64,000 nucleotides of DNA, from NCBI GenBank assembly GCA_038046785.1, contig JBBSVM010000002.1, positions 125,196 to 189,195 of the forward strand. Direction: 5' to 3'. This document shows positions 4,079 to 51,434 of this stretch, in pieces; within the stretch, counting starts at the first letter, position 1, and each line of letters starts with the position of its first letter. Both the position numbers and the translations under genes were made by a program. Origin of the DNA: Thermoplasmatota archaeon. GTDB lineage: Archaea > Thermoplasmatota > E2 > JACPAO01 > JAHFTW01. A model generated the notes under the pieces. That model had not been told where the DNA came from. It saw nothing but the letters and a program-made list of their open reading frames with translations, and searched no databases.

Positions 4079-5368
4079 GTGCGCGGAGTGGCGTTTGGGC
4101 TCGTTGCGATGTTCATCCTGGCTGGATGCCTTGCGAGCGGGCCAGACGCCGATCGCGACGGTTTGGCCGACGAGGAAGAACGCCGAGCAAAACTCAATCC
4201 CAGCAACGCCGACAGCGACGGCGACGGAATCGAGGACGGAACTGAGCAGGACGAAGGGACCGACCCGAACGCGAGCGACAGCGACGGGGACGGCCTGGAC
4301 GACGGCACCGAGCAAGAAGAGGGGACCGACCCGAACGAGAGCGATTCCGACGGCGACGGCTCCGACGACGGCGCCGAGGTGGAAGCGCAATCCAACCCCA
4401 ATGATGCCTCCAGCGCACCGCCCTACAAACTCCCGAACGTTCCCGCTGTGGATGGCGTCAAGCTCGTCGCCGGATTGGAGGCCTTCGCGGCCGCCCACAA
4501 CGTGCGCTCCAACAACGGTCCCGACCACGTCGCGGCGCGGGACACCATCGCGTCCGCTTTCCGCAAGGCTGGGCTTGAGGTCTGGTTGCACAATTTCACC
4601 AACGGCATCGAGCAGCAGAACGTCGTCGGCATCCGCTGGGGACTGGACCGCGACCGCTGGGTCGTGGTCGCCGGCCACTACGACACGACGACGACGCTGG
4701 GCGTGGACCAGAGCTTGAGCGAGGGCATCTACGACGACGGCTCCGGCACCTGGATGACAGTGCATCTTGCGCAAGCGTACGCCAACCTGACGATGCCGCT
4801 GACCCTCGTCTTCGTCGCCTTCGACGGCGAGGAGCGCGGCCTGGAAGGCTCGGGCGCTTTCGCGGAGGCGGTTCTCACCGGTGCGACGCCCTATCCCACT
4901 GCGACGGTGGCTGGGGTGGTGGACTTGGACATGATTGGCCTCAACTGGCCCGGCATTCAGGCCCCCATCGTCTTCGTCGCCAACACGTTGGTTCTGCGTG
5001 AGCCCATCGAGGCGGCCAAAGCCGAACTTGCAATCCCGAACGATATGGTGCGCTACGACACCGGCATTGCCCTTGGCAGCAGCGACTACGCCAACTTCTT
5101 TGCCCACTCCATCCCGACCGGATTCTTCTCCAGCGACTTCGAGTACGTCGCTGCCCCGTTCGCCCCCGCACCTGTGCCCACCACCCCCGGCCTTGGCATC
5201 TATCCGTTCTGGCACCTTGCGGACACCATGGAGACGATGACGGCGATGGCGGGCACCCGGGCCAACCTCGAAGCGGGTTTCGGCACCGCAGCGGCTGTCG
5301 CCGCTCGCCTCACCCACTGGCTCGCCTCTGATTTGGGCCCCGATGAGGCCGGCACCTCCGCGGTCTGA
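4079..5368 (+). CDS. M28 metallopeptidase lipoprotein with thrombospondin-type-3-like Ca-binding repeats
   Basis: LAGC lipobox; four D.DGDG..D..E repeats; Zn ligands GHYD, DDGSG, GEERG, DLDM, FWH. Confidence 0.85.
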   Translation: MRGVAFGLVAMFILAGCLASGPDADRDGLADEEERRAKLNPSNADSDGDGIEDGTEQDEGTDPNASDSDGDGLDDGTEQEEGTDPNESDSDGDGSDDGAEVEAQSNPNDASSAPPYKLPNVPAVDGVKLVAGLEAFAAAHNVRSNNGPDHVAARDTIASAFRKAGLEVWLHNFTNGIEQQNVVGIRWGLDRDRWVVVAGHYDTTTTLGVDQSLSEGIYDDGSGTWMTVHLAQAYANLTMPLTLVFVAFDGEERGLEGSGAFAEAVLTGATPYPTATVAGVVDLDMIGLNWPGIQAPIVFVANTLVLREPIEAAKAELAIPNDMVRYDTGIALGSSDYANFFAHSIPTGFFSSDFEYVAAPFAPAPVPTTPGLGIYPFWHLADTMETMTAMAGTRANLEAGFGTAAAVAARLTHWLASDLGPDEAGTSAV

Positions 5369-5409
5369 GCACCGCAATCCTGATGTTGGCGTCCGGGTGG
5401 CCACGGTCC

Positions 5410-6462
5410 ATGCGCACCGCACTTGTCCTCCTGGCCATCGTCCTGGCTGGCTGCATGCAGACCGCCGCGACGACGGAGGAATCCCTTGTCTCGTTCCCCG
5501 CGGCACCTCTCGACGTCGACGCCGCCACAGTCGTGGACGAACTGCGCGTCTTCTCCGCCGCCCACCCGCTGCGCGTCGGCAACAGCGCCGACCACGAAGC
5601 GGCTCGCGTGGACCTTCTTGCGCGCTTTGCCGACTTGGGACTCACCACCTGGCGTCACGACTTCACGCCCGATGGCGATGGTCAACTGCCGCAAGCCAAC
5701 ATCGTTGGTCTGCAATGGGGCACCACCCACCCCGACGAGTGGGTCGTCGTCGGCGGCCATTACGATGTCGTCCCGACTCCCTCCTGCCCCGCCGCCCTCC
5801 CCGTCTGCCCCGAACAGGTGAACACACAGGGAACCTACGACGACGGCTCCGGAACCATGCTCACCGTCGGCCTCGCCGCTGCGTACAGCAAGGTCGAGAC
5901 GCCCTTCACCATCGCCTACGTCGCGTTCGACGGCGAGGAGCGCGGCCTGCAGGGCTCGCGCGCCTTTGCCGAGATGCTGGTGAGCGGAACCCCGTACGGC
6001 AACGTCACGGTGCGCGCCATGCTCGACCTCGACATGTTCGGCCTCAACTGGCCCGGCGTGGACTCCCCCATTTACTTCGATGACAACTCGCCCGAACTGA
6101 AGGCGTACGTCAAGGACGTCGCGGCCGCCATCGGCATCCCGGACGGCCTCATCCTCTACCAGGGCATCAGCCTCGGCCGCAGCGACTACGACTCGTTCTT
6201 CCAGATTGGCGCTCCGACCGGGTTCTTCATCAGCGACTTCGAACGCTTCCAGGCCCCCGCCGACGTCCCCGTCCAGGCGCCGCAGGAATCGGGCCAGGCG
6301 TACCCGTTCTGGCACCGCTACGACACCTACGATTCCATGGTGTTGATGGCGGGCTCCGAAGCGGACGTCGTGGCGGGCTTTCAGACGGCGGCCGACCTCG
6401 CGTCTGCGGTGCTCTGGCGCATGGCCGTGAGCGAAGAGCCACTCAGCTCCATCGACGTGTAG
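5410..6462 (+). CDS. M28 metallopeptidase lipoprotein (paralog)
   Basis: LAGC lipobox; GHYD, DDGSG, FDGEERGL.GS, DLDM, SDY, PFWH. Confidence 0.87.
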   Translation: MRTALVLLAIVLAGCMQTAATTEESLVSFPAAPLDVDAATVVDELRVFSAAHPLRVGNSADHEAARVDLLARFADLGLTTWRHDFTPDGDGQLPQANIVGLQWGTTHPDEWVVVGGHYDVVPTPSCPAALPVCPEQVNTQGTYDDGSGTMLTVGLAAAYSKVETPFTIAYVAFDGEERGLQGSRAFAEMLVSGTPYGNVTVRAMLDLDMFGLNWPGVDSPIYFDDNSPELKAYVKDVAAAIGIPDGLILYQGISLGRSDYDSFFQIGAPTGFFISDFERFQAPADVPVQAPQESGQAYPFWHRYDTYDSMVLMAGSEADVVAGFQTAADLASAVLWRMAVSEEPLSSIDV

Positions 6463-32603: not shown

Positions 32604-33296
32604 ATGGACGACAACCTCGGCATCCTCCCAACCAAGGACGAACTGGCCACGAAGGCCAAGGCAAAGACCGAGCCTGCCGCTCCCGCCGTCGTCGCCGCGC
32701 CCAAGCCCGCCAAGAAGCGCGCCAAGGACCGCAAGACCGATCTCGACGCCGAGCCGGAAGTGCGCACCGGCGCCATGCTGCTCGCGCTCAAGACCCAGGT
32801 CGGCCAGGAGCGCCGCGTCGCTGAGGCCTTCGGCGGCAAAGCGAAGCGGTTCAAGCTCCCCGTCCTCGGCCTGCTCTGGGCCACCGAGCTGCGTGGCCTC
32901 GTCTTCATCGAGACCACCGACCCGCTCGCCGTCGAGAAGGGCATCCGCGGCGTCAGCTACGCACGCGGCCTCATGAACCACAGCCTCGAAGTGCGCGACG
33001 AAGATGGCAAGGTCGTGCGCAAGAACGGCGTCACCGTCACGAAGAAGGAGTTCGTCGAGATTCCCTTCAGCGACATCAGCCGCTTCCTCACCCCTGCCTC
33101 CGCCGTCGCCAAGATTTCCGAGGGCGACATCGTCGAACTGGTCTCCGGACCGTTCCGCGGTGAGAAGGCCAAGGTCACCCGCGTCGACGACACCCGCGAA
33201 GAGATCACGGTCGAGCTCGTCGAATCGATGGTGCCCATCCCCATCACGACGAAGGGCGAGCAGGTGCGCGTTCTGCAGAAGAGCGGCGGCGCGTAG
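32604..33296 (+). CDS. spt5: Transcription elongation factor Spt5 (NusG)
   Basis: KTQVGQE, LRG.VFIE (NGN); KOW motif GDIVELVSGPFRGEKAKV. Confidence 0.93.
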   Translation: MDDNLGILPTKDELATKAKAKTEPAAPAVVAAPKPAKKRAKDRKTDLDAEPEVRTGAMLLALKTQVGQERRVAEAFGGKAKRFKLPVLGLLWATELRGLVFIETTDPLAVEKGIRGVSYARGLMNHSLEVRDEDGKVVRKNGVTVTKKEFVEIPFSDISRFLTPASAVAKISEGDIVELVSGPFRGEKAKVTRVDDTREEITVELVESMVPIPITTKGEQVRVLQKSGGA

Positions 33297-33369
33297 AACC
33301 TCCTCGTCAAACCGAACGCCAGGCTCCAGCGTGAGCTCCGCTGCGAAAAAACTCGAGGGACTCCAACCC

Positions 33370-33483
33370 GGAAAAGAGAAACCGGCGGGGCGGGCACCCG
33401 GTTGCCCGGGTGCTGGGTGGAGTCAGGTGGGTGGTGGTTGTCGCGTACCGACGCCAATCAAGGCGTCGGCTTGCCCCGCCGGC
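33370..33483 (-). ncRNA. Candidate structured small RNA (three-way junction)
   Basis: 10-bp closing helix, two 8-bp hairpins (one with a GCAA loop), TTAT 25 nt upstream, TTTCTCTTTT directly downstream. Confidence 0.55.
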
Positions 33484-33569
33484 GCACCGTCATGCTGGCA
33501 GGTCGGCATAACAACCGTCGGGGCGGTTCCATCTTGACGAGCGGCAACAGATGGACAATTTCGCGCAAT

Positions 33570-33617
33570 GTGAACGGGTTCACCTCATCAGGTGAGAGCC
33601 GCGCAAAAGGCTTTGAT
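33570..33617 (+). promoter_or_regulatory. Palindromes GTGAAC-GG-GTTCAC and TCACCT-CATC-AGGTGA abutting BRE/TATA-like CGCAAAAGGCTTTGAT
   Basis: Perfect inverted repeats; the TATA-like box is 26 nt before the GTG at 33641. Confidence 0.5.
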
Positions 33618-33640
33618 GGGCGCTCTCCCCTTGTGGGCAG

Positions 33641-33901
33641 GTGTCCGCGCGTCGCATCTGCGCCTTTGCTCTTCTCATACTCATCCTTGCCCCGGCGGTT
33701 GCGGCCGACCCCTCCAACTCCAGTTCGCCCTCCCAGCCTGACGAGGCCGCTGTGCCCTGCCCCTTGATTGAGGTGCGTCAGCCGCTTCCCGGCCATGTCG
33801 AGCCGCAGGTCTTCGTGGACCCCTTTGGCTGCTGGCAGCGCCGCGTCCTCAAGGTCACCAACTATGCCGTCCGGACCGTCAACGAACTCATCAACGGGTG
33901 A
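33641..33901 (+). CDS. Small secreted protein
   Basis: Signal peptide ending AVAA; two Cys in the mature part. Confidence 0.65.
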   Translation: MSARRICAFALLILILAPAVAADPSNSSSPSQPDEAAVPCPLIEVRQPLPGHVEPQVFVDPFGCWQRRVLKVTNYAVRTVNELING

Positions 33902-33905
33902 AGCG

Positions 33906-35351
33906 ATGCGCGTCCTGGTTCCCCTCGTCACCGCAGTACTCTTGGTCCTCCCGGTCGCCCACGCCGAACTGCGCGCAGCCAGCGCTTCCTACGATCAGCC
34001 CTCCAGCCTCGAAGGGCCCTTGGAGCTGCTCCAGCTGCGCACCGATGTGGGCGGCGGCGCACCCTGGGTCTCCTTTGAGGCGGCCGACATCGAGGCAGTG
34101 CAGTACAACTCCACCTACGTCGTCTCCGACCGGGGGAGTCCCGCTTCCTACCAGACGCAGGGTCCCACCGGAACCCCGTACGATCTGGGCGTCGGGCGGG
34201 CCCGCTTGGACGCCTCGCGCGGCCTCTACCGCCTGAACCTCTACGCGCCGAGCGGCATGGGGTTGCGCGCCCATGCTGACCAGGGCACCCTCGTCGCCAC
34301 GGATGGGACCGATTTGTCGCGTGGAGGTTTGGGCCTCGGCGGCAGCGACCCCACCTGCGCCGACCCTCGGCCCAACCTTGGGCAGTTCTGCCGCATCGAA
34401 CGGCAGGGCCCCATCCTCCTGCACAGCACGGAGGGACGCAGCGCCGAAGCGGTGGTGTACGGCGACACGCTCATCCTCGAACTGTTCGGCTTGGACATGG
34501 CGGTGGACGGCGAACGCGACATGACCCTGCAGAGCGGCCGCTTCCCCGCCGCGGTCGCCCCAGTGACCGGGCCCGTGCGGCAAGAGACCGAAGTGTTCGT
34601 CCGCCTCATCCTCACCGCGGCAACCGTCACCCTCGCAGCGGATGGCGAAGCGATGCTGGAGTGGGCGGCGCGCAAAGTCACGACCCACCACGAAGGCTCA
34701 CTCACCCTCAACTCCGCGTACGGCACGGCGCCGGGCTCGGAGGGCATCCAGCTCAACGGCGAACGCTACATCGCAGCGGCGGGCCTGGACTTCCTCCTCA
34801 CCCCGTCCTCCGGCGGTGCGCTCGAGGCAGAGCCAGCCGCGGCGAGCGCGCCCGCCGCGACCAACGCGGTGCCGGCCGCCGTCACCGCCAGCGCCCCCTT
34901 CGTCCTCCTCGCCATCGCGTTCCTTCTCGTGGGCCTTCTCGCGCTGCGGCTGCGCCCCGCCAGCCTCGGCGCCATGGAGCAGGCCATCACCCAGGGTCGC
35001 CACCGCCGTGCCGCCCGCCTGGCCGCCCGGCTCCTGCGCCGCGACCCAACCCAGGAGGATGCTCGACTCGGCCGCGCCATCGCACTCACTCGCTCCGGCC
35101 GCGCGGCGCGCGCCATCCGCGAGGTGGCGGCCCACCTGAAACGAGCGGAGCCCAGCGACGGTTCACTCCACTATGTCCTGGGCCTCGCTCTTCTGGAGAA
35201 GCGGCGTTCTTCGGAAGCGCGCGCCGCCCTGCGTGAGGCGGTGCGCCGCACCCCGGAATTGGAAGCGGATGTGCGCGCCCGCGCTTTCGACGCTCTGCCC
35301 GTCGCATCGCAGCCCGCCCGCGCCTCCAAGGAGGGGGTTGGCTATGTCTGA
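33906..35351 (+). CDS. Single-pass membrane protein with extracellular domain and cytoplasmic TPR repeats
   Basis: Signal peptide; TM PFVLLAIAFLLVGLLAL; TPR-like ARLGRAIAL, LHYVLGLAL...EAVRRTP. Confidence 0.78.
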   Translation: MRVLVPLVTAVLLVLPVAHAELRAASASYDQPSSLEGPLELLQLRTDVGGGAPWVSFEAADIEAVQYNSTYVVSDRGSPASYQTQGPTGTPYDLGVGRARLDASRGLYRLNLYAPSGMGLRAHADQGTLVATDGTDLSRGGLGLGGSDPTCADPRPNLGQFCRIERQGPILLHSTEGRSAEAVVYGDTLILELFGLDMAVDGERDMTLQSGRFPAAVAPVTGPVRQETEVFVRLILTAATVTLAADGEAMLEWAARKVTTHHEGSLTLNSAYGTAPGSEGIQLNGERYIAAAGLDFLLTPSSGGALEAEPAAASAPAATNAVPAAVTASAPFVLLAIAFLLVGLLALRLRPASLGAMEQAITQGRHRRAARLAARLLRRDPTQEDARLGRAIALTRSGRAARAIREVAAHLKRAEPSDGSLHYVLGLALLEKRRSSEARAALREAVRRTPELEADVRARAFDALPVASQPARASKEGVGYV

Positions 35352-35874
35352 CATGGGCCACCTCCCCGGAGGTTCCGACCTCCAGCGGCCTGGCCTCGCT
35401 GAGCAGCCGATGCGCGCCCGCCTGCTCTCGCTCATCACGGAGAATCCCGGCATCCACGCCAGCCGTCTCGCGCGCGAATCGGGCGGCCCGTGGGGCACTG
35501 TGCAGTACCACCTCAGCTTGCTCGGCAAAGGCGATTTGGTGCAGAGCGTGGACACCGGCCGCGAGCGCCGCTTCTTCCCCGCCAGCACCGAGCCGCGTTG
35601 GGCCCGTCTCCTCGCTCTGCTCAACCAGGGCCGCCGCCCCGAGCTGGCGCGCTACATCCAGGCCAACCCGGGGTTGCGCCAAGTGGACATCTGCGACGCC
35701 CTCGGCGTGAGCCGGAAGACCTTCCGCGCCAGCATTGGCCCCCTCGTCGAGGAGGGGCTCGTCCACGAGCGCAAAGGTCTGCAGACCAATCGCTACTTCC
35801 CCGAGCCGGGGCTGGCCGAGGCGATGGGTCAGGTCCGCGACGACCCATTCCCTGACGACATGGCGCTGGGCTAA
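35344..35874 (+). CDS. Double winged-HTH transcriptional regulator
   Basis: I.ENPGIH...LAR......GTVQYHL..L; second HTH IQANPGL.Q.DI...LGVSR. Confidence 0.85.
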   Translation: MSDMGHLPGGSDLQRPGLAEQPMRARLLSLITENPGIHASRLARESGGPWGTVQYHLSLLGKGDLVQSVDTGRERRFFPASTEPRWARLLALLNQGRRPELARYIQANPGLRQVDICDALGVSRKTFRASIGPLVEEGLVHERKGLQTNRYFPEPGLAEAMGQVRDDPFPDDMALG

Positions 35875-35945
35875 CCGCTTAAGCGGGCAACTCCTGGCGC
35901 GGGCGTGAAGATTGGACTCGACCGGAAACCCGGTCGATCAGTTGG

Positions 35946-46731: not shown

Positions 46732-48378
46732 GTGGCCCGCACGGTCCTCGCTGACGCTTCGCGCCTGACGCGCTTCAACGAGATTGTCGCCATCCTGCTG
46801 CGCCACAACGCCTGGCGGCTGCTGCGCGGCATGCTGCGCGCCCCGTCGGAGAAGGACGAGGAGGCGGCGTCCCGGCCCGAAAGGGTGCGCAAACTCCTCG
46901 AAGCGCTTGGCCCCACTTTCATCAAACTCGGCCAGCTGCTTGCGACGCGTCCCGACCTGGTGCCGAAGGCCTACGTCGAAGAGTTCAGCAAGCTCTACGA
47001 CCAGACGCCGCCGAGCCCGCCCGAAGAAGTGCAGCGCGTCCTGCGCGAGGAGCTGTGCCGCGACCCTTCCACGGTCTTCGCCACGTTCGAGACCACGCCC
47101 ATTGCAAGCGCCAGCATCGGCCAAGTGCACAAGGCGACCCTCATGGATGGCACCCCGGTCGCCGTTAAGGTCCAGCACGTCGGCACCGAGGAGCGCATGG
47201 TGCTGGATTTCCAGATTCTCAAGGGGCTCGTCACCTTCATCGAGAAGACGTTCAGCGGGTCGCGTGTTTGGCAGCCGATGGACCACCTCGAGGAGTTGCG
47301 CCTCATGTTGGAGCGCGAGCTGGACTACCGCTATGAGATGCGCACGACGCAGCAAGTGGCGGCCAACTTCGCCAGCGACCCGACCGTGCACATCCCGGCC
47401 GTCTACCCGATGGCGTGCGGCAAGCGCCTGCTCGTCATGGAGTTCATCGAGGGCACCAAGCTGAGCCGACTCGACGGTCCCGAAGTGGCCGCCATCGACC
47501 GGCCTGCCGTGGCGCGCAACCTCACGACGGCGATGGCGAAGCAGATTTTCGTGCACCGCCTCTTCCACGCCGACCCGTCGCCCGGCAACCTCATGGTGCA
47601 AGGCACGAGCACCGTCGTCTTCCTCGACTTCGGCGCCGTCGGCCTCGTTACGGAGCGGCGGGCCAAGACCATTCTCACCCTCATCTCTTCGATTGGCAAG
47701 GGCGATTCCGAAGCGGCGGGGGAAGCCATCCTCGACCTCTGCGACCAGCGCGCCGAACTGGACCTCAAGCGGTTCCAGGGCGATGTCGAGCGCATGGTGG
47801 ATTACTTCGAACGCGAGTCCGTGAGCGTCGCGGACCCGGTGCTGATGGACCTCATCATCGGCATCGCGCGCAGCCACAAAATGCTCCTGCCGCCCGACTT
47901 CGCCCTCATCACCCGCGCCCTCTTCCAGTTCGAGGGGTTCTGCCGGCAGCTCGACCCCGACTTCGACCTCACCGCCGTCCTTGCTCCCTTCGTGCAGCAG
48001 TTGGTCTGGCGCAACCTCGCCGACCCGCGCGCCCAGAAGGAGCTCATCGAAGAGACGCTGGGCGAGCTGCTGAAGTTCGGCCGCACCGTTCCGCACACCC
48101 TCAACACGGTGCTGCGCAAGATCGAGCGCAACGAGCTGACCACCCGCGTCGACCTCGTCGGCCTCGAGGGCATCAAGTCGGCGCAGGGGCGCGGCGTCCT
48201 GAAGATGGCGTTCACCGTGATGATGGCCTCGCTGCTCATCGGCCTCGGCATCATTTACGGCGCCAACGTCCCCTCCGCCCGCGTCGGGCAGTTCCTGTTC
48301 GGCGCCGGCGCCGTCATGGCCATCTGGACTCTGGTCATGGTGCTCTGGTCGGAGAGCTTCAAGGGACGCCGGGAGTAG
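46732..48378 (+). CDS. AarF/UbiB (ABC1) family atypical kinase
   Basis: LGPTFIKLGQ, ASASIGQVH, VAVKVQ, FHADP.PGN, LDFG. Confidence 0.93.
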   Translation: MARTVLADASRLTRFNEIVAILLRHNAWRLLRGMLRAPSEKDEEAASRPERVRKLLEALGPTFIKLGQLLATRPDLVPKAYVEEFSKLYDQTPPSPPEEVQRVLREELCRDPSTVFATFETTPIASASIGQVHKATLMDGTPVAVKVQHVGTEERMVLDFQILKGLVTFIEKTFSGSRVWQPMDHLEELRLMLERELDYRYEMRTTQQVAANFASDPTVHIPAVYPMACGKRLLVMEFIEGTKLSRLDGPEVAAIDRPAVARNLTTAMAKQIFVHRLFHADPSPGNLMVQGTSTVVFLDFGAVGLVTERRAKTILTLISSIGKGDSEAAGEAILDLCDQRAELDLKRFQGDVERMVDYFERESVSVADPVLMDLIIGIARSHKMLLPPDFALITRALFQFEGFCRQLDPDFDLTAVLAPFVQQLVWRNLADPRAQKELIEETLGELLKFGRTVPHTLNTVLRKIERNELTTRVDLVGLEGIKSAQGRGVLKMAFTVMMASLLIGLGIIYGANVPSARVGQFLFGAGAVMAIWTLVMVLWSESFKGRRE

Positions 48379-48432
48379 CCGCACGGGTTCGCCCGCCGAC
48401 AGCCTTTCATCCTTCGAGGAAGGTCGCTCCAC

Positions 48433-49119
48433 ATGGGCAAGACACTCCCCATCCTGGGCATCGCGGCCGCCGTGCTTGCCGCCGCGTTCGCCTGCGCTGT
48501 GACCGGGGATGCCGTCCCGCTTCTGGCCATGCTGTTCCTGGTCGGGGTGGCCATCGCTCTCTTCGTTCAGGCGCGGGCGCTGCCGGTCCTCCTTGGGGTG
48601 GGGCTTCTGCTTGCTGCCGCCTCAGCCATCCTCTACTATGCACCCTTTATCGGCGAGGGCGGCAAAGTCTACCTCGCGGGCATGCCCGATTTCTTCCAGG
48701 GGCCCTACCAGGCGGCGCTCTGCGTCCTCGCCTGGGTCGCCATCCTGGTCGCGCGCCAGGAAGAGGTCGAGCCGACCTGGATGTTGGCCATCGGCCCGAT
48801 CTTCGCCGGCATCGCCATCCTCGCCATGCTGTTCATCCCGAGCTCTCAGTTTGGCAACTTCGGCAACTCGGTCAACATCATCGCGGGCGTCCTTTGCCTC
48901 ACCCTCATCGTCCCCATGGCGTTCCTGCTGCGCGGCCCTCGTGAAGAGCCCGAGCCGGCCCCGTCCCCCTTCCAGCCCGTGCGCCCGGTCCCTCCCGGCC
49001 TCAGGCCCGCCCCGCCTGTGAAGGCGGCCCCCACTTTCGCCGCGCCGCTCAAGAAAGCTCCAGCCCCCGCCCCGCCACCCCCGGGCCAGACGACGGCAAA
49101 CCGGTCGCCGCCGAAGTAA
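48433..49119 (+). CDS. Multi-pass membrane protein with Pro-rich tail
   Basis: About six hydrophobic segments. Confidence 0.7.
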   Translation: MGKTLPILGIAAAVLAAAFACAVTGDAVPLLAMLFLVGVAIALFVQARALPVLLGVGLLLAAASAILYYAPFIGEGGKVYLAGMPDFFQGPYQAALCVLAWVAILVARQEEVEPTWMLAIGPIFAGIAILAMLFIPSSQFGNFGNSVNIIAGVLCLTLIVPMAFLLRGPREEPEPAPSPFQPVRPVPPGLRPAPPVKAAPTFAAPLKKAPAPAPPPPGQTTANRSPPK

Positions 49120-49145
49120 TGTAGAGGGCCTTCGTCGCGCGGGCG

Positions 49146-50504
49146 ATGAGCCTTCGCACCCTCGGCTGCGGTGAGGTCAAACCGGTCCACTACGGCACGA
49201 CGCAAACGTTCGCTGGCTGGGTCCACGCCGTGCGCTCCAAAGGCACCATCGCGTTCCTGGTGTTGCGCGACCGCACCGGCCAGGTGCAGTTTGTCATCAA
49301 GAAGGAGGCGACCCCCGCCCTCTTTGACCAGCTCACCGCCCTGAGCCCGGAATCGGTCGTCTCCGTCACCGGTCTGGTGGCCGCGACCGAGAAGGCGAAG
49401 GCCGGTTTCGAGGTCGTTCCGACGGCGGCGAAGACGCTCAACGTCGCGGCGACCCCGTTGCCGTTCGCGCTCTGGGACGACAAGATTGAGACCGGCATCG
49501 ACACCCGTCTCGACAACCGATTCCTGGACCTGCGCGGGCCGCGTTCCGCGGCGATTTTCCGCATCCGCCACAAGGTCGTCGAGTCGGGCTCCGCCTGGCT
49601 GCGCGCCAACGGTTTCCAGGAAATCCACACCAGCAACATCCTCGGCGCCTCGAGTGAGGGCGGCACGGACACCTACAAGTTCGACTACTTCGGCCGCAAG
49701 GCGTTCCTGGCCCAATCGCCGCAGCTCTACAAGCAGATGATGATGGCGGCCGGCATGGACCGCGTCTTCGAGGTGGGCTGGTATTTCCGCGCCGAGAAGC
49801 ACAACACGGTGCGCCACCTCAACGAGTCGACCGCGTTCGACATCGAGCTCAGTTTCATCGAATCGGAGGAAGATGTTCTCAAAGCCATCGAGGGACTGCT
49901 CACCGCCATCTGGGCCGCCGTCGCGCGTGAGTGCGCGGCCGAAGTCGCCATCCTCAAGGCGGATGTTCCTGTGCCGACGAAAGCGTTCCGCCGCATCCCG
50001 TACGAGGAGGCGCTCACCGTCATCAACCACGAGCTCGACACCGCCGCCGACCTGCCGGCCGAACTCAAGATGCCGCATCTCAAGTTCGGCGACGACATCG
50101 GCTCCGCCGCCGAGAAGGTGCTCTGGCGCGCCATGAAGCGCGAAGGCCATGACTTCTACTTCATCACGAAGTGGCCGCTTGCCCCGAAGCCGTTCTACGT
50201 CATGCCGGAGGACGGCACGATGAACTCGCGTCTCTGCCGCGGCTTCGACTTGGACTACCGCGGCGTCGAGCTCATCTCGGGCGGCCAGCGCATCCACGAC
50301 CCGGTTCTCCTGGAAGCTGGCATCAAGCGCTGGGGTCTCGACCCGAAGGATTTCAAGGACTACCTCGACGCGTTCCGCTACGGCATGCCCCCGCACGGCG
50401 GTTGCGGCATTGGGATTGAGCGGATTCTCATGATGATGCTCGGGTTGCCGAACATCCGCGAAGCCATCCTCTTCCCGCGCGATGTGACGCGCTTGACGCC
50501 GTAG
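49146..50504 (+). CDS. aspS: Archaeal-type aspartate--tRNA ligase
   Basis: OB-fold GWV...LRD; QSPQLYKQ; FRAE; GGQRIH; PPHGG.GIG.ER. Confidence 0.96.
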   Translation: MSLRTLGCGEVKPVHYGTTQTFAGWVHAVRSKGTIAFLVLRDRTGQVQFVIKKEATPALFDQLTALSPESVVSVTGLVAATEKAKAGFEVVPTAAKTLNVAATPLPFALWDDKIETGIDTRLDNRFLDLRGPRSAAIFRIRHKVVESGSAWLRANGFQEIHTSNILGASSEGGTDTYKFDYFGRKAFLAQSPQLYKQMMMAAGMDRVFEVGWYFRAEKHNTVRHLNESTAFDIELSFIESEEDVLKAIEGLLTAIWAAVARECAAEVAILKADVPVPTKAFRRIPYEEALTVINHELDTAADLPAELKMPHLKFGDDIGSAAEKVLWRAMKREGHDFYFITKWPLAPKPFYVMPEDGTMNSRLCRGFDLDYRGVELISGGQRIHDPVLLEAGIKRWGLDPKDFKDYLDAFRYGMPPHGGCGIGIERILMMMLGLPNIREAILFPRDVTRLTP

Positions 50505-51434
50505 CTACAGGTAGTGCAACGCCAGGAAGACGACGACGGGCAGGGCGATCGCCAGGATGGCGCCGCGTCGGTTCACCAGTTCGGCAATGCGCTGCGGGAG
50601 TTTCATCTGCTCGCCGAAGACCAGCACCGTCGTGACGAGGATGGTGGACGCGATGAACGAATAGGCGGAGATCATCACCTTGTCGAACAGCGTGAGGGCG
50701 CCAAGCGGCGGCAGGCTCACGGTCTGGCTGATGTGGAACCCGACGGCGGTGATGAGCATGCCTGTGCCCAGCGCGAGGCGGTTGGAGGCTTGGCTGCGGT
50801 CGAAGAAGAAGCTGAAACTCGCCACCAGCATGAACGCGACCGGGGGCAGGAAGGTGCGCAGCGCGCTCGACACCGGTTCGCGGCGCAACTCCAACGTGTA
50901 GGTGAGGCGGCTGTAGGACTCCCCGAACGGGTACTCCTTCACCGTCGCCAAGGCGGTGAGGTTGTTCTGGCGCCAACCGGCGACGCGGGCGTCCGCGTCG
51001 AGCGTCGTCGAACCGGGCACGAAGACCAGCGTGTCAGCCTGGTTGATGGTGTCCTCGAGCGTGATGGTGAGCCGCTGCGCGTCGAACGGGTAGTCCGCAA
51101 AGGCGGGGCTGTTGTAGAGGTTGGCCTGGATGCGGTACCAGACATCGCGGCCGGCGGGTCCGGTCTCGTCGGAGAGCAGCTCCCGGCTTGCAGCGCGGCC
51201 GTTCATGAATTCGAACTGCTCGGGAGTGAAGTTCGCCGGTGCCTGTTGGGGATCCCAGCGCATGTGGAGGTAGAAGTCGAGCGTGTAGGTGCCCTTCGCG
51301 GTGTCGTAGTTCCCCACACTGATGAGATGGAGATCCACGGTGACGGCAACCGGATCCGCCGCGGCGGTGGGAAGGGCGGCAAGAAGGGCGACGAGTCCGA
51401 GGGCGACCGGAAGGGCGCGCATGGAAGAGGGCAT
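50505..51434 (-). CDS. Pentameric ligand-gated ion channel (GLIC/ELIC-like, Pro-loop)
   Basis: Signal peptide; DFYL..RWD; YPFD.Q Pro-loop; LRR pre-M1; four TM helices; LP in the M2-M3 loop. Confidence 0.85.
   Translation of the reverse strand: MPSSMRALPVALGLVALLAALPTAAADPVAVTVDLHLISVGNYDTAKGTYTLDFYLHMRWDPQQAPANFTPEQFEFMNGRAASRELLSDETGPAGRDVWYRIQANLYNSPAFADYPFDAQRLTITLEDTINQADTLVFVPGSTTLDADARVAGWRQNNLTALATVKEYPFGESYSRLTYTLELRREPVSSALRTFLPPVAFMLVASFSFFFDRSQASNRLALGTGMLITAVGFHISQTVSLPPLGALTLFDKVMISAYSFIASTILVTTVLVFGEQMKLPQRIAELVNRRGAILAIALPVVVFLALHYL

Follow-up and report, generated by a model that had tools for sequence, protein, structure and literature searches.

We have analysed a 64,000-nucleotide stretch of DNA from a Thermoplasmatota archaeon (GenBank assembly GCA_038046785.1, contig JBBSVM010000002.1, positions 125,196 to 189,195 of the forward strand), hereafter the window, in which a cassette of three genes lies between nusG/spt5 and the gene for a YGR210-like GTPase. 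The window has a GC content of ~0.66 and an archaeal gene content (SecE, Spt5/NusG, YGR210-like GTPase). Specifically, the cassette operon encodes; 1) a mini-protein with a predicted signal peptide; 2) a membrane protein, referred to here as the receptor; and, 3) a tandem winged helix-turn-helix (wHTH) regulator, with a small RNA (sRNA) gene on the opposite strand (Table 1). The cassette is a conserved unit, in which a receptor family is nearly always linked, and sometimes fused, to a double wHTH regulator and the sRNA gene lies divergently at the locus.

Table 1. Coordinates of the cassette genes, the divergent sRNA gene and the elements between them, counted from the first letter of the window.
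Feature	Position	Strand	Details
sRNA gene, ~115 nt	~33366-33487	-	covariance model R1 match, G000:C2:158561-158682 minus strand
sRNA P1 closing stem	5' strand ~33473-33483, 3' strand ~33382-33392	-	alignment and fold
sRNA unpaired CA-rich stretch	33412-33444	-	…ACAACCACC(ACC)CACCUGACUCCACC…; invariant across 8-9 genomes of the genus
sRNA TATA-like TTAT box	33508-33511	-	29 nt upstream of the P1 start; TAA columns invariant
16-nt motif	33525-33540	-	TCGTCAAGATGGAACC; family consensus TCGnCArnnnGGrwAC; 17.7 bits in a position weight matrix (PWM) scan
Palindrome 1	33570-33583	.	GTGAACGGGTTCAC, GTGAAC-GG-GTTCAC
Palindrome 2	33580-33595	.	TCACCTCATCAGGTGA, TCACCT-CATC-AGGTGA
Operon promoter-like element, B recognition element (BRE)/TATA-like	33602-33617	+	GCAAAAGGCTTTGAT; T-rich core 33611-33617
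Mini-protein gene	33641-33901	+	GTG start, 86 amino acids (aa)
Receptor gene	33906-35351	+	481 aa
wHTH regulator gene	35344-35874	+	176 aa

The mini-protein has a hydrophobic N-terminus that ends in AVAA, with Cys7 lying within this signal peptide, and its mature part of ~64 aa carries Cys40 and Cys64, which enclose a 23-residue loop. Neither Pfam nor NCBIfam holds a family for it, and the ESM Atlas gave no usable feature match, the Atlas models themselves being of low confidence.

The receptor begins with a signal-like segment (residues 1-20, ending in VAHA), which is followed by an ectodomain from residue 21 to ~330, a transmembrane (TM) helix at ~331-348 and a cytoplasmic region with tetratricopeptide repeats (TPRs). 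The last of these assignments comes from residues 356-460, which score 33.7 bits against Pfam TPR_19 (cut-off 25), so that one TPR model stands above its gathering score, with TPR_16 falling just under its own (32.3 vs 32.7). The ectodomain matches no known family in Pfam or NCBIfam, NCBIfam giving only sub-threshold matches to TPR and ArsR/MarR models; in the ESM Atlas it found only matches with scores of at most 0.77 and TM-scores of at most 0.28, among models of low confidence, and a PDB sequence search gave generic wHTH and TPR matches only. The C-terminus of the receptor (residues 478-481, window 35337-35348) is a conserved (G/A)Y(A/V/T/S)-COOH, the Tyr of which is invariant.

The regulator is encoded by a separate open reading frame (ORF) and has no hydrophobic segment. 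It matches PF24266 (HTH_HVO_0163_N) at residues 23-83 with 49.8 bits (cut-off 31) and the MarR-like HTH_24 at residues 103-140, as well as MarR_2 and HTH_20 in Pfam. Mean pairwise identity among 18 orthologues of the regulator is 0.60, residues W50-H56 and S123-K125 of the recognition helices vary little or not at all, and ~12 of 21 of these proteins end in a hydrophobic residue followed by Ala (…PALA, …IDVA). All wHTH paralogues of the genome match PF24266 above the cut-off and, judged from their sequences, the entire PF24266 regulator family of this genome looks membrane-linked.

Two further observations concern these paralogues. At five loci (L006, L009, L010, L012 and L015) PF24266 double-wHTH genes adjoin genes for small proteins of 90-137 aa with two to three TM helices and weak DUF5985 matches, and at L003 and L004 the wHTH is fused behind N-terminal TM segments.

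The original prediction, made from the letters of the window and their ORFs, had described this layout as three tightly coupled genes, for an 86-aa signal-peptide protein with two mature Cys, for a receptor with a signal peptide, an ectodomain of ~310 aa, one TM helix and cytoplasmic TPRs, and for a tandem-wHTH regulator, with no kinase present. All of this is borne out. The gene coordinates, the 4-nt gap between the mini-protein and receptor genes and the 8-nt overlap of the receptor and wHTH genes were reproduced; the mini-protein can be read directly from its ORF, the receptor architecture agrees with both its sequence and Pfam, and Pfam recognises both wHTH domains of the regulator. The GC content at third codon positions (GC3) of the mini-protein, receptor and wHTH genes (0.80, 0.84 and 0.88) is on par with that of the flanking genes. 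Moreover, neither the three cassette proteins nor the products of six ORFs around them (an amino-acid permease, SecE, Spt5/NusG, the YGR210-like GTPase, a GNAT acetyltransferase and one without a family) matched HisKA, HATPase or Response_reg in Pfam. The window cassette has neither a histidine kinase nor a receiver and is not a two-component system.

Conservation of the cassette was followed with the single receptor protein in 24 other genomes of the same family and in 12 genomes of six other families (f3-f8). This search found a receptor homologue in 22 of the 24 and in none (0/12) of the genomes of f3-f8. The wHTH gene lies directly downstream at 20 of 21 orthologous loci, with 55-82% identity and an intergenic distance of -14 to +30 nt, the lone miss (L030) being cut by a contig end, and the gene order secE-nusG-cassette-GTPase holds throughout the family. 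At 21 of 21 loci the receptor gene is preceded by one for a signal-peptide protein, and in the 17 family loci listed the distance from the end of that gene to the receptor start ranges from an overlap of 4 nt to a gap of 11 nt. These upstream proteins are otherwise unalignable; their mature Cys count is always even, and the last two Cys enclose 16-38 residues (median 24). The even number and the last loop fit a disulfide-closed C-terminal domain, and we regard the signal peptides and the disulfide of the mini-protein as predictions from sequence. With paralogues included, 26 of the 29 receptor genes examined are preceded by a gene for a signal-peptide protein with at least two Cys in its last 70 residues, and many of the upstream proteins of paralogues bear a fibronectin type III (FN3)-like part ahead of the Cys loop. 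Within the receptor itself, the 19 orthologues compared have a mean pairwise identity of 0.20 in the ectodomain, as opposed to 0.45 in the cytoplasmic part.

A profile built from 22 receptors extended this distribution. It matched 33 of 151 genomes of the class, with up to 10 matches per genome, and by family these fell in f1 (26/31), f2 (3/4) and f3 (2/2), with one TPR-only match in f10 and none in f4 (0/68), f5 (0/25) or f9 (0/13). Across 301 genomes of the phylum 23 were matched, including 7 of 9 in f16 and members of f23, f34 and f38, with none in f4, f11, f14, f24 or f32. Among 1.84 billion cluster representatives, 135 proteins matched the profile at E <= 1e-30 and 890 did so at E <= 1e-10; among the best 150 matches nearly all were full-length (450-560 aa). 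A word-indexed protein search, which had given only 7 matches, was superseded by these profile searches.

We inspected the neighbourhoods of 20 paralogous regions, holding 21 receptor genes, and of 14 distant loci from other families of the phylum. A wHTH gene adjoins 16 of the 21 paralogous receptor genes (downstream, upstream or divergent), and at all 14 of the distant loci the wHTH is adjacent or fused. In three of the loci, L100, L131 and L134, a single open frame joins ectodomain, TM helix and double wHTH; in L100 the frame has a GC3 of 0.86-0.96 from its inferred start to its end, vs 0.58-0.92 in the non-coding lead-in, and Pfam places PF24266 and HTH_24 after the TM helix. A second cassette of the same genome (contig C9, ~46900-50600 on the minus strand; L007, G000:C9:49243-49845) has three genes, for a secreted protein with an FN3-like part and a Cys loop, for a 358-aa ectodomain-TM receptor paralogue with a tail of ~31 aa and no TPR, and for a 291-aa wHTH protein with its own signal peptide and TM helix. 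The three natural fusions and the anchored wHTH of the C9 cassette tie the receptor to the regulator. Synteny across the family and the receptor-wHTH fusions in three lineages thus uphold the earlier proposal that the three genes form a conserved unit with a transcription factor as its output; the co-occurrence of the genes in other genomes on which that proposal had been staked was found, as were the paralogous cassettes that it envisaged, up to 10 per genome, whose small proteins and ectodomains diverge fast.

At one locus, G007:C5:150076-153850 (L035/L043), two receptor genes stand in tandem, the core copy and a paralogue directly upstream of it, which shows that local duplication is a source of paralogues.

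The relation between the receptor tail and the regulator can be compared across the family. A cytoplasmic tail of 121-162 aa is present in 18 of the 20 receptors with a detectable TM helix, and the two receptors without a TPR-sized tail are those in which the wHTH is itself anchored or fused. This complementarity of tail and anchoring is the sole comparative hint that the TPR tail may keep the wHTH at the membrane, and we regard it as suggestive but thin. A complex prediction with alignments, for receptor residues 336-481 (including 13 TM residues) together with the wHTH, scored 0.01 vs a mark of 0.32, which gives no verdict and is used neither for nor against an interaction. TPR domains often bind C-terminal tails, and it is tempting to speculate that the tails of the receptor and of the wHTH could compete for the TPR groove.

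The spacer of 344 nt between nusG and the mini-protein gene includes a segment with 77% identity to the closest relative, and a core of 26-32 nt within it does not vary in the genus. This is a conserved, structured element on the minus strand, divergent from the operon, and it bears out the divergent RNA of the original prediction. It folds into a three-way junction in which P1 encloses a hairpin (P2), a 33-nt unpaired CA-rich stretch and a second hairpin with a GCAA loop (P3), followed by a U-tract; the minimum free energy (MFE) is -62.6 kcal/mol (z = -5.76). In the alignment P1 is a closing helix of 13-14 bp that is 92.9% paired, with compensatory changes at 5 pairs, and 0 of 500 shuffles reached its score. 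At four pairs, five sequence-positions are G-U on the minus strand and A-C mismatches on the plus strand, with two the reverse, and a U-tract follows the helix on the minus strand only; the G-U bias and the U-tract together assign the sRNA to the minus strand. The CA-rich stretch is unpaired in both the MFE and centroid folds and is presumed to be the seed or binding surface of the sRNA.

A covariance model of the sRNA matches 10 of 32 family genomes, once in each and always at the cassette locus, and shorter CA-rich versions can be made out by eye at four more loci, of which three belong to other genera. No Rfam family matches at gathering score, the best E-value within 33200-33750 being 1.1, and the sole match at gathering level in the window is a tRNA. 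The possibility that the element is the signal recognition particle (SRP) RNA or the RNase P RNA was rejected, the genome's own copies of both sitting on other contigs.

Both divergent transcription units are preceded by boxes that are, from their sequence and spacing, putative promoters, with the transcription starts being predicted. The centre of the T-rich core of the operon element lies ~27 nt ahead of the GTG, a spacing that implies a leaderless mRNA for the operon, and the homologous box of relatives (CAAAsCCTTTTAC) ends 19-22 nt before the mini-protein start codon by hand count at 5 loci. The TTAT(C) box of the sRNA gene keeps a spacing of 29-32 nt to P1 across loci.

At L054 and L058 the CAAAsCCTTTTAC box ends 39 nt before the start codon. 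The operon of these two loci has a leader of ~15 nt with a Shine-Dalgarno-like GGUGGAG, complementary to CUCCACC of the unpaired sRNA stretch (duplex z of -2.0 and -3.0); the same leader also carries ACUCCAC upstream of GGUGGAG and may form a hairpin in cis.

Upstream of the sRNA box lies the 16-nt motif. In relatives from several genera the motif stands 9-13 nt upstream of the T-rich box at both divergent promoters, in inverted orientation, which is what co-regulation would predict, and its asymmetry is what one would expect of the site of a monomer whose two winged helices differ. The whole 1.7-Mb genome has 22 sites above 14 bits on its two strands, the others being without promoter context, and on this count we rejected the motif as a general promoter element. 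In the window only the sRNA-proximal copy is intact, and this copy is a candidate operator through which the wHTH might act on the sRNA promoter.

The original prediction had instead pointed to two overlapping palindromes beside the BRE/TATA as the binding site of the wHTH. The palindromes are exact and stand where it had placed them; however, they are not conserved even in the closest relative (L048), which at this place has GAACC-N6-GGTTC and then the consensus motif. When the intergenic region was shuffled 2000 times by mononucleotides, 3.4% of the shuffles held two overlapping palindromes whose centres differ. Palindrome 2 occupies the place that the operon-proximal 16-nt motif takes in relatives and, since they are unconserved and sit in that place, the palindromes are a weaker operator candidate than the 33525-33540 motif.

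We hypothesise, and consider it reasonably probable, that the cassette is a kinase-free transmembrane signalling system, a ToxR/ToxS-like co-component regulator split over three proteins, which would operate as follows. The operon would be transcribed as a leaderless mRNA, and the mini-protein would be exported, oxidised into one disulfide-closed loop and docked on the fast-evolving ectodomain of its cognate receptor, where it would serve as a partner or co-sensor outside the cell. Through one helix the ectodomain would relay its state to the TPR tail, which would hold the soluble tandem wHTH at the membrane and release or engage it when conditions outside change. The wHTH would behave as a pseudo-dimer of two different winged helices recognising the asymmetric TCGnCArnnnGGrwAC, and the position of this 16-nt site, just upstream of the TATA box, would be that of an activator. 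As the window motif stands before the sRNA gene, the sRNA would be the likeliest direct output in the window; in relatives the second copy of the motif, at the operon promoter, would give autoregulation. The sRNA would then act in trans through its exposed CA-rich stretch, either on G-rich (Shine-Dalgarno-like) RNA or on a protein. In this scheme the binding steps, the promoter roles and the action of the sRNA are what we infer.

Several observations weigh against this hypothesis. For the output, no sRNA target emerged, a genome-wide search for words of at least 11 nt that complement the CA-rich stretch giving only patternless matches of 11-12 nt, and the energies of sRNA duplexes with the sequences around the starts of the cassette genes, computed for all three genes in 9 genomes, were unconvincing (z from +1.1 to -3.0). 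The PWM of the 16-nt motif was built from the same loci in which the motif was counted; five instances outside the training set (L034, L036, L038, L052 and L056) all score above 14 bits. The operon-proximal copy of the motif is missing in the window (<9 bits), which leaves autoregulation unsupported for this genome. For the relay, 5 of the 21 paralogous receptor genes lack a wHTH gene in the flanking sequence inspected, and the complementarity of tail and anchoring rests on two exceptions. For the partner, a simple upstream-ORF rule found a small Cys-loop ORF at only 2 of the 14 distant loci, and 2 more of these have an upstream secreted protein without Cys.

Other explanations account for part of the same evidence. 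The question of whether the sRNA belongs to the cassette at all is raised by the possibility that it is an independent, lineage-specific neighbour, outside the control of the cassette and linked to it only by a common intergenic region next to nusG. The match of the covariance model in only 10 of the 32 family genomes, the absence of a match in G002, G007, G009 and G001, which are of the same genus and carry the cassette, and the lack of any pairing with cassette mRNAs that stands out would all agree with this. Against it, every match is single-copy and at the cassette locus, divergent versions are visible by eye at the four further loci, including that of G002 (L053), and one and the same motif, scarce elsewhere in the genome, stands at both promoters. 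We consider an independent sRNA somewhat unlikely, but an alternative that deserves to be kept in mind. The mini-protein could, in turn, be a diffusible, strain-specific signal in an autocrine or quorum-like circuit, with the receptor gauging its concentration and the operon inducing itself. A signal peptide that looks cleavable with no membrane anchor, the fast divergence of mini-protein and ectodomain beside conserved cytoplasmic parts, the many paralogous signal/receptor pairs per genome and the motif that relatives carry before the operon promoter, as positive feedback needs, are what such a circuit would have. The window, however, lacks that operon-proximal motif, and many of the paralogous "small" proteins are of 150-290 aa with FN3-like parts, which is unlike a pheromone; we find this reading unlikely to be correct.

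It is less probable still that the mini-protein and receptor form a surface or envelope pair with a structural, adhesive or transport role, that the wHTH is a local regulator of it and that the TPR binds something else. Neither ectodomain nor mini-protein has a recognisable sensor fold, TPR domains bind many kinds of partner, and autoregulators beside their own targets are common. However, an ectodomain-TM protein has been fused to a DNA-binding domain three times independently, for which there is no easy account unless a signal flows to DNA, the same applies to the membrane-anchored wHTH of a TPR-less cassette, and the link between receptor and wHTH holds in three gene orders (downstream, upstream and divergent). 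An archaeocin-like system, consisting of a secreted antimicrobial peptide, an immunity membrane protein and a regulator, would likewise begin with a small secreted protein, predicted to be disulfide-bonded, followed by a membrane protein, but we think it very improbable. Pfam scans found no exporter or processing gene in the cassette, which is a syntenic part of the core genome with up to 10 paralogues per genome, some of them FN3-bearing, and an "immunity" protein that is fused to a DNA-binding domain does not fit. Our preferred reading, the kinase-free co-component regulator, can also be carried further, to the idea that the cassettes serve archaeal cell-to-cell (or self/non-self) communication. 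Each paralogue would then be a secreted Cys-loop "word" with its cognate receptor and a phosphorylation-free relay to a TPR-held wHTH, and the direct output of the core copy would be a trans-acting sRNA whose anti-Shine-Dalgarno-like CA-rich stretch tunes translation. To this extension we give little credence at present.

Outside the cassette, positions 35905-35940 of the window, right after the wHTH gene, carry a remnant duplicate of the GTPase gene's 5' end (GTG AAG ATT GGA CTC…, MKIGL…), and a 36-aa duplicate of the same GTPase N-terminus is present in G010 (L026/L056). The remnant may be the scar of a cassette insertion or rearrangement. A tmRNA called by ARAGORN at 5007-5419 (minus strand) is probably a false positive, the genome being archaeal and Rfam finding nothing there.

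How uncultured Thermoplasmatota transduce signals is almost unknown, and classical two-component systems are few in archaea. In the present case sequence is enough to define an entire family of receptor-regulator cassettes, with fusions that show its logic and with a candidate operator and sRNA output built in, so that kinase-free sensing of the outside by these archaea becomes a directly testable question. The sRNA, moreover, adds a structured RNA family that is absent from Rfam.

The original prediction had also held that no archaeal system with this layout has been described. We found no description of this architecture in the literature consulted here on archaeal transmembrane transcription regulators (TTRs), on membrane-tethered winged-helix regulators of archaea and on HVO_0163, although the supplementary TTR lists of PMC10269533 might include the fused relatives; the kind of system, by contrast, does have precedent in the archaeal TTRs (PMC10269533). 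According to that source, TTRs are widespread, with 1,384 found in archaeal genomes, and are defined by a DNA-binding domain and at least one TM region in one protein (PMC10269533). The window cassette falls outside this definition, as its wHTH is a separate ORF without a TM helix, whereas the fusions L100, L131 and L134 and the C9 paralogue with its own TM helix fall within it. By its sequence the window regulator belongs to PF24266, a family of haloarchaeal double-wHTH proteins for which pairing with this receptor family is not described; for HVO_0163 itself we found no functional study and one acetylome study only. ToxRS is described as a member of the "co-component" group (PMC13042144). 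In ToxRS-like systems an adjacent gene encodes an extracytoplasmic partner that binds the sensor domain; here a gene for a secreted protein lies beside the receptor gene at 21 of 21 loci, and its product may be such a partner.

Like ToxR/ToxS, TcpP/TcpH and CadC of bacteria, the cassette is kinase-free and combines an extracytoplasmic domain, one TM helix and a winged-helix output at the membrane. ToxS acts as a partner protein and ToxR-type systems have periplasmic cysteines; like ToxR/ToxS, the cassette has an adjacent gene for a putative extracytoplasmic partner and Cys outside the cell that are predicted to form a disulfide. It differs from ToxR-type systems in that the DNA-binding protein of the window is separate and soluble, with the TPR sitting where the DNA-binding domain would be, and in that this protein is a tandem ArsR/MarR-like wHTH (PF24266) and not of the OmpR/PhoB type, no Trans_reg_C match being found in Pfam at E <= 1, so that this ToxR-like feature is lacking. 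The ectodomain and its partner, moreover, are of no known family, the partner is secreted and not membrane-anchored, and an sRNA gene lies in the locus.

Anti-sigma factors paired with extracytoplasmic function (ECF) sigma factors, and the repressor Mlc held at the membrane by PtsG, offer a second comparison. Like an anti-sigma/ECF pair, the cassette has a single-pass protein, with a sensor outside and a protein-binding domain inside, that is translationally coupled to a transcription factor, and it has undergone lineage-specific expansion into many paralogous pairs. Archaea are not known to have sigma factors and, unlike in anti-sigma/ECF pairs or Mlc-PtsG, it is a wHTH that would be held, by a TPR, the sequestration being a proposal here. 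The RRNPP sensors (Rap, NprR, PlcR and PrgX) combine TPR and HTH in one cytoplasmic protein that binds a re-imported short peptide, with pro-peptide genes adjacent. Like them, the cassette places a TPR, an HTH output and a small secreted product side by side, and signal and receptor diverge fast; unlike them, it has its TPR (residues 356-460) in the cytoplasmic tail of a membrane protein whose ectodomain is large, its HTH is a separate ORF, and its secreted product is a presumably folded Cys-loop protein of at least ~64 aa. We class the receptor family, the secreted partner domain and the sRNA as undescribed, and the kind of system to which they belong as a known one, that of the kinase-free transmembrane or co-component regulator.

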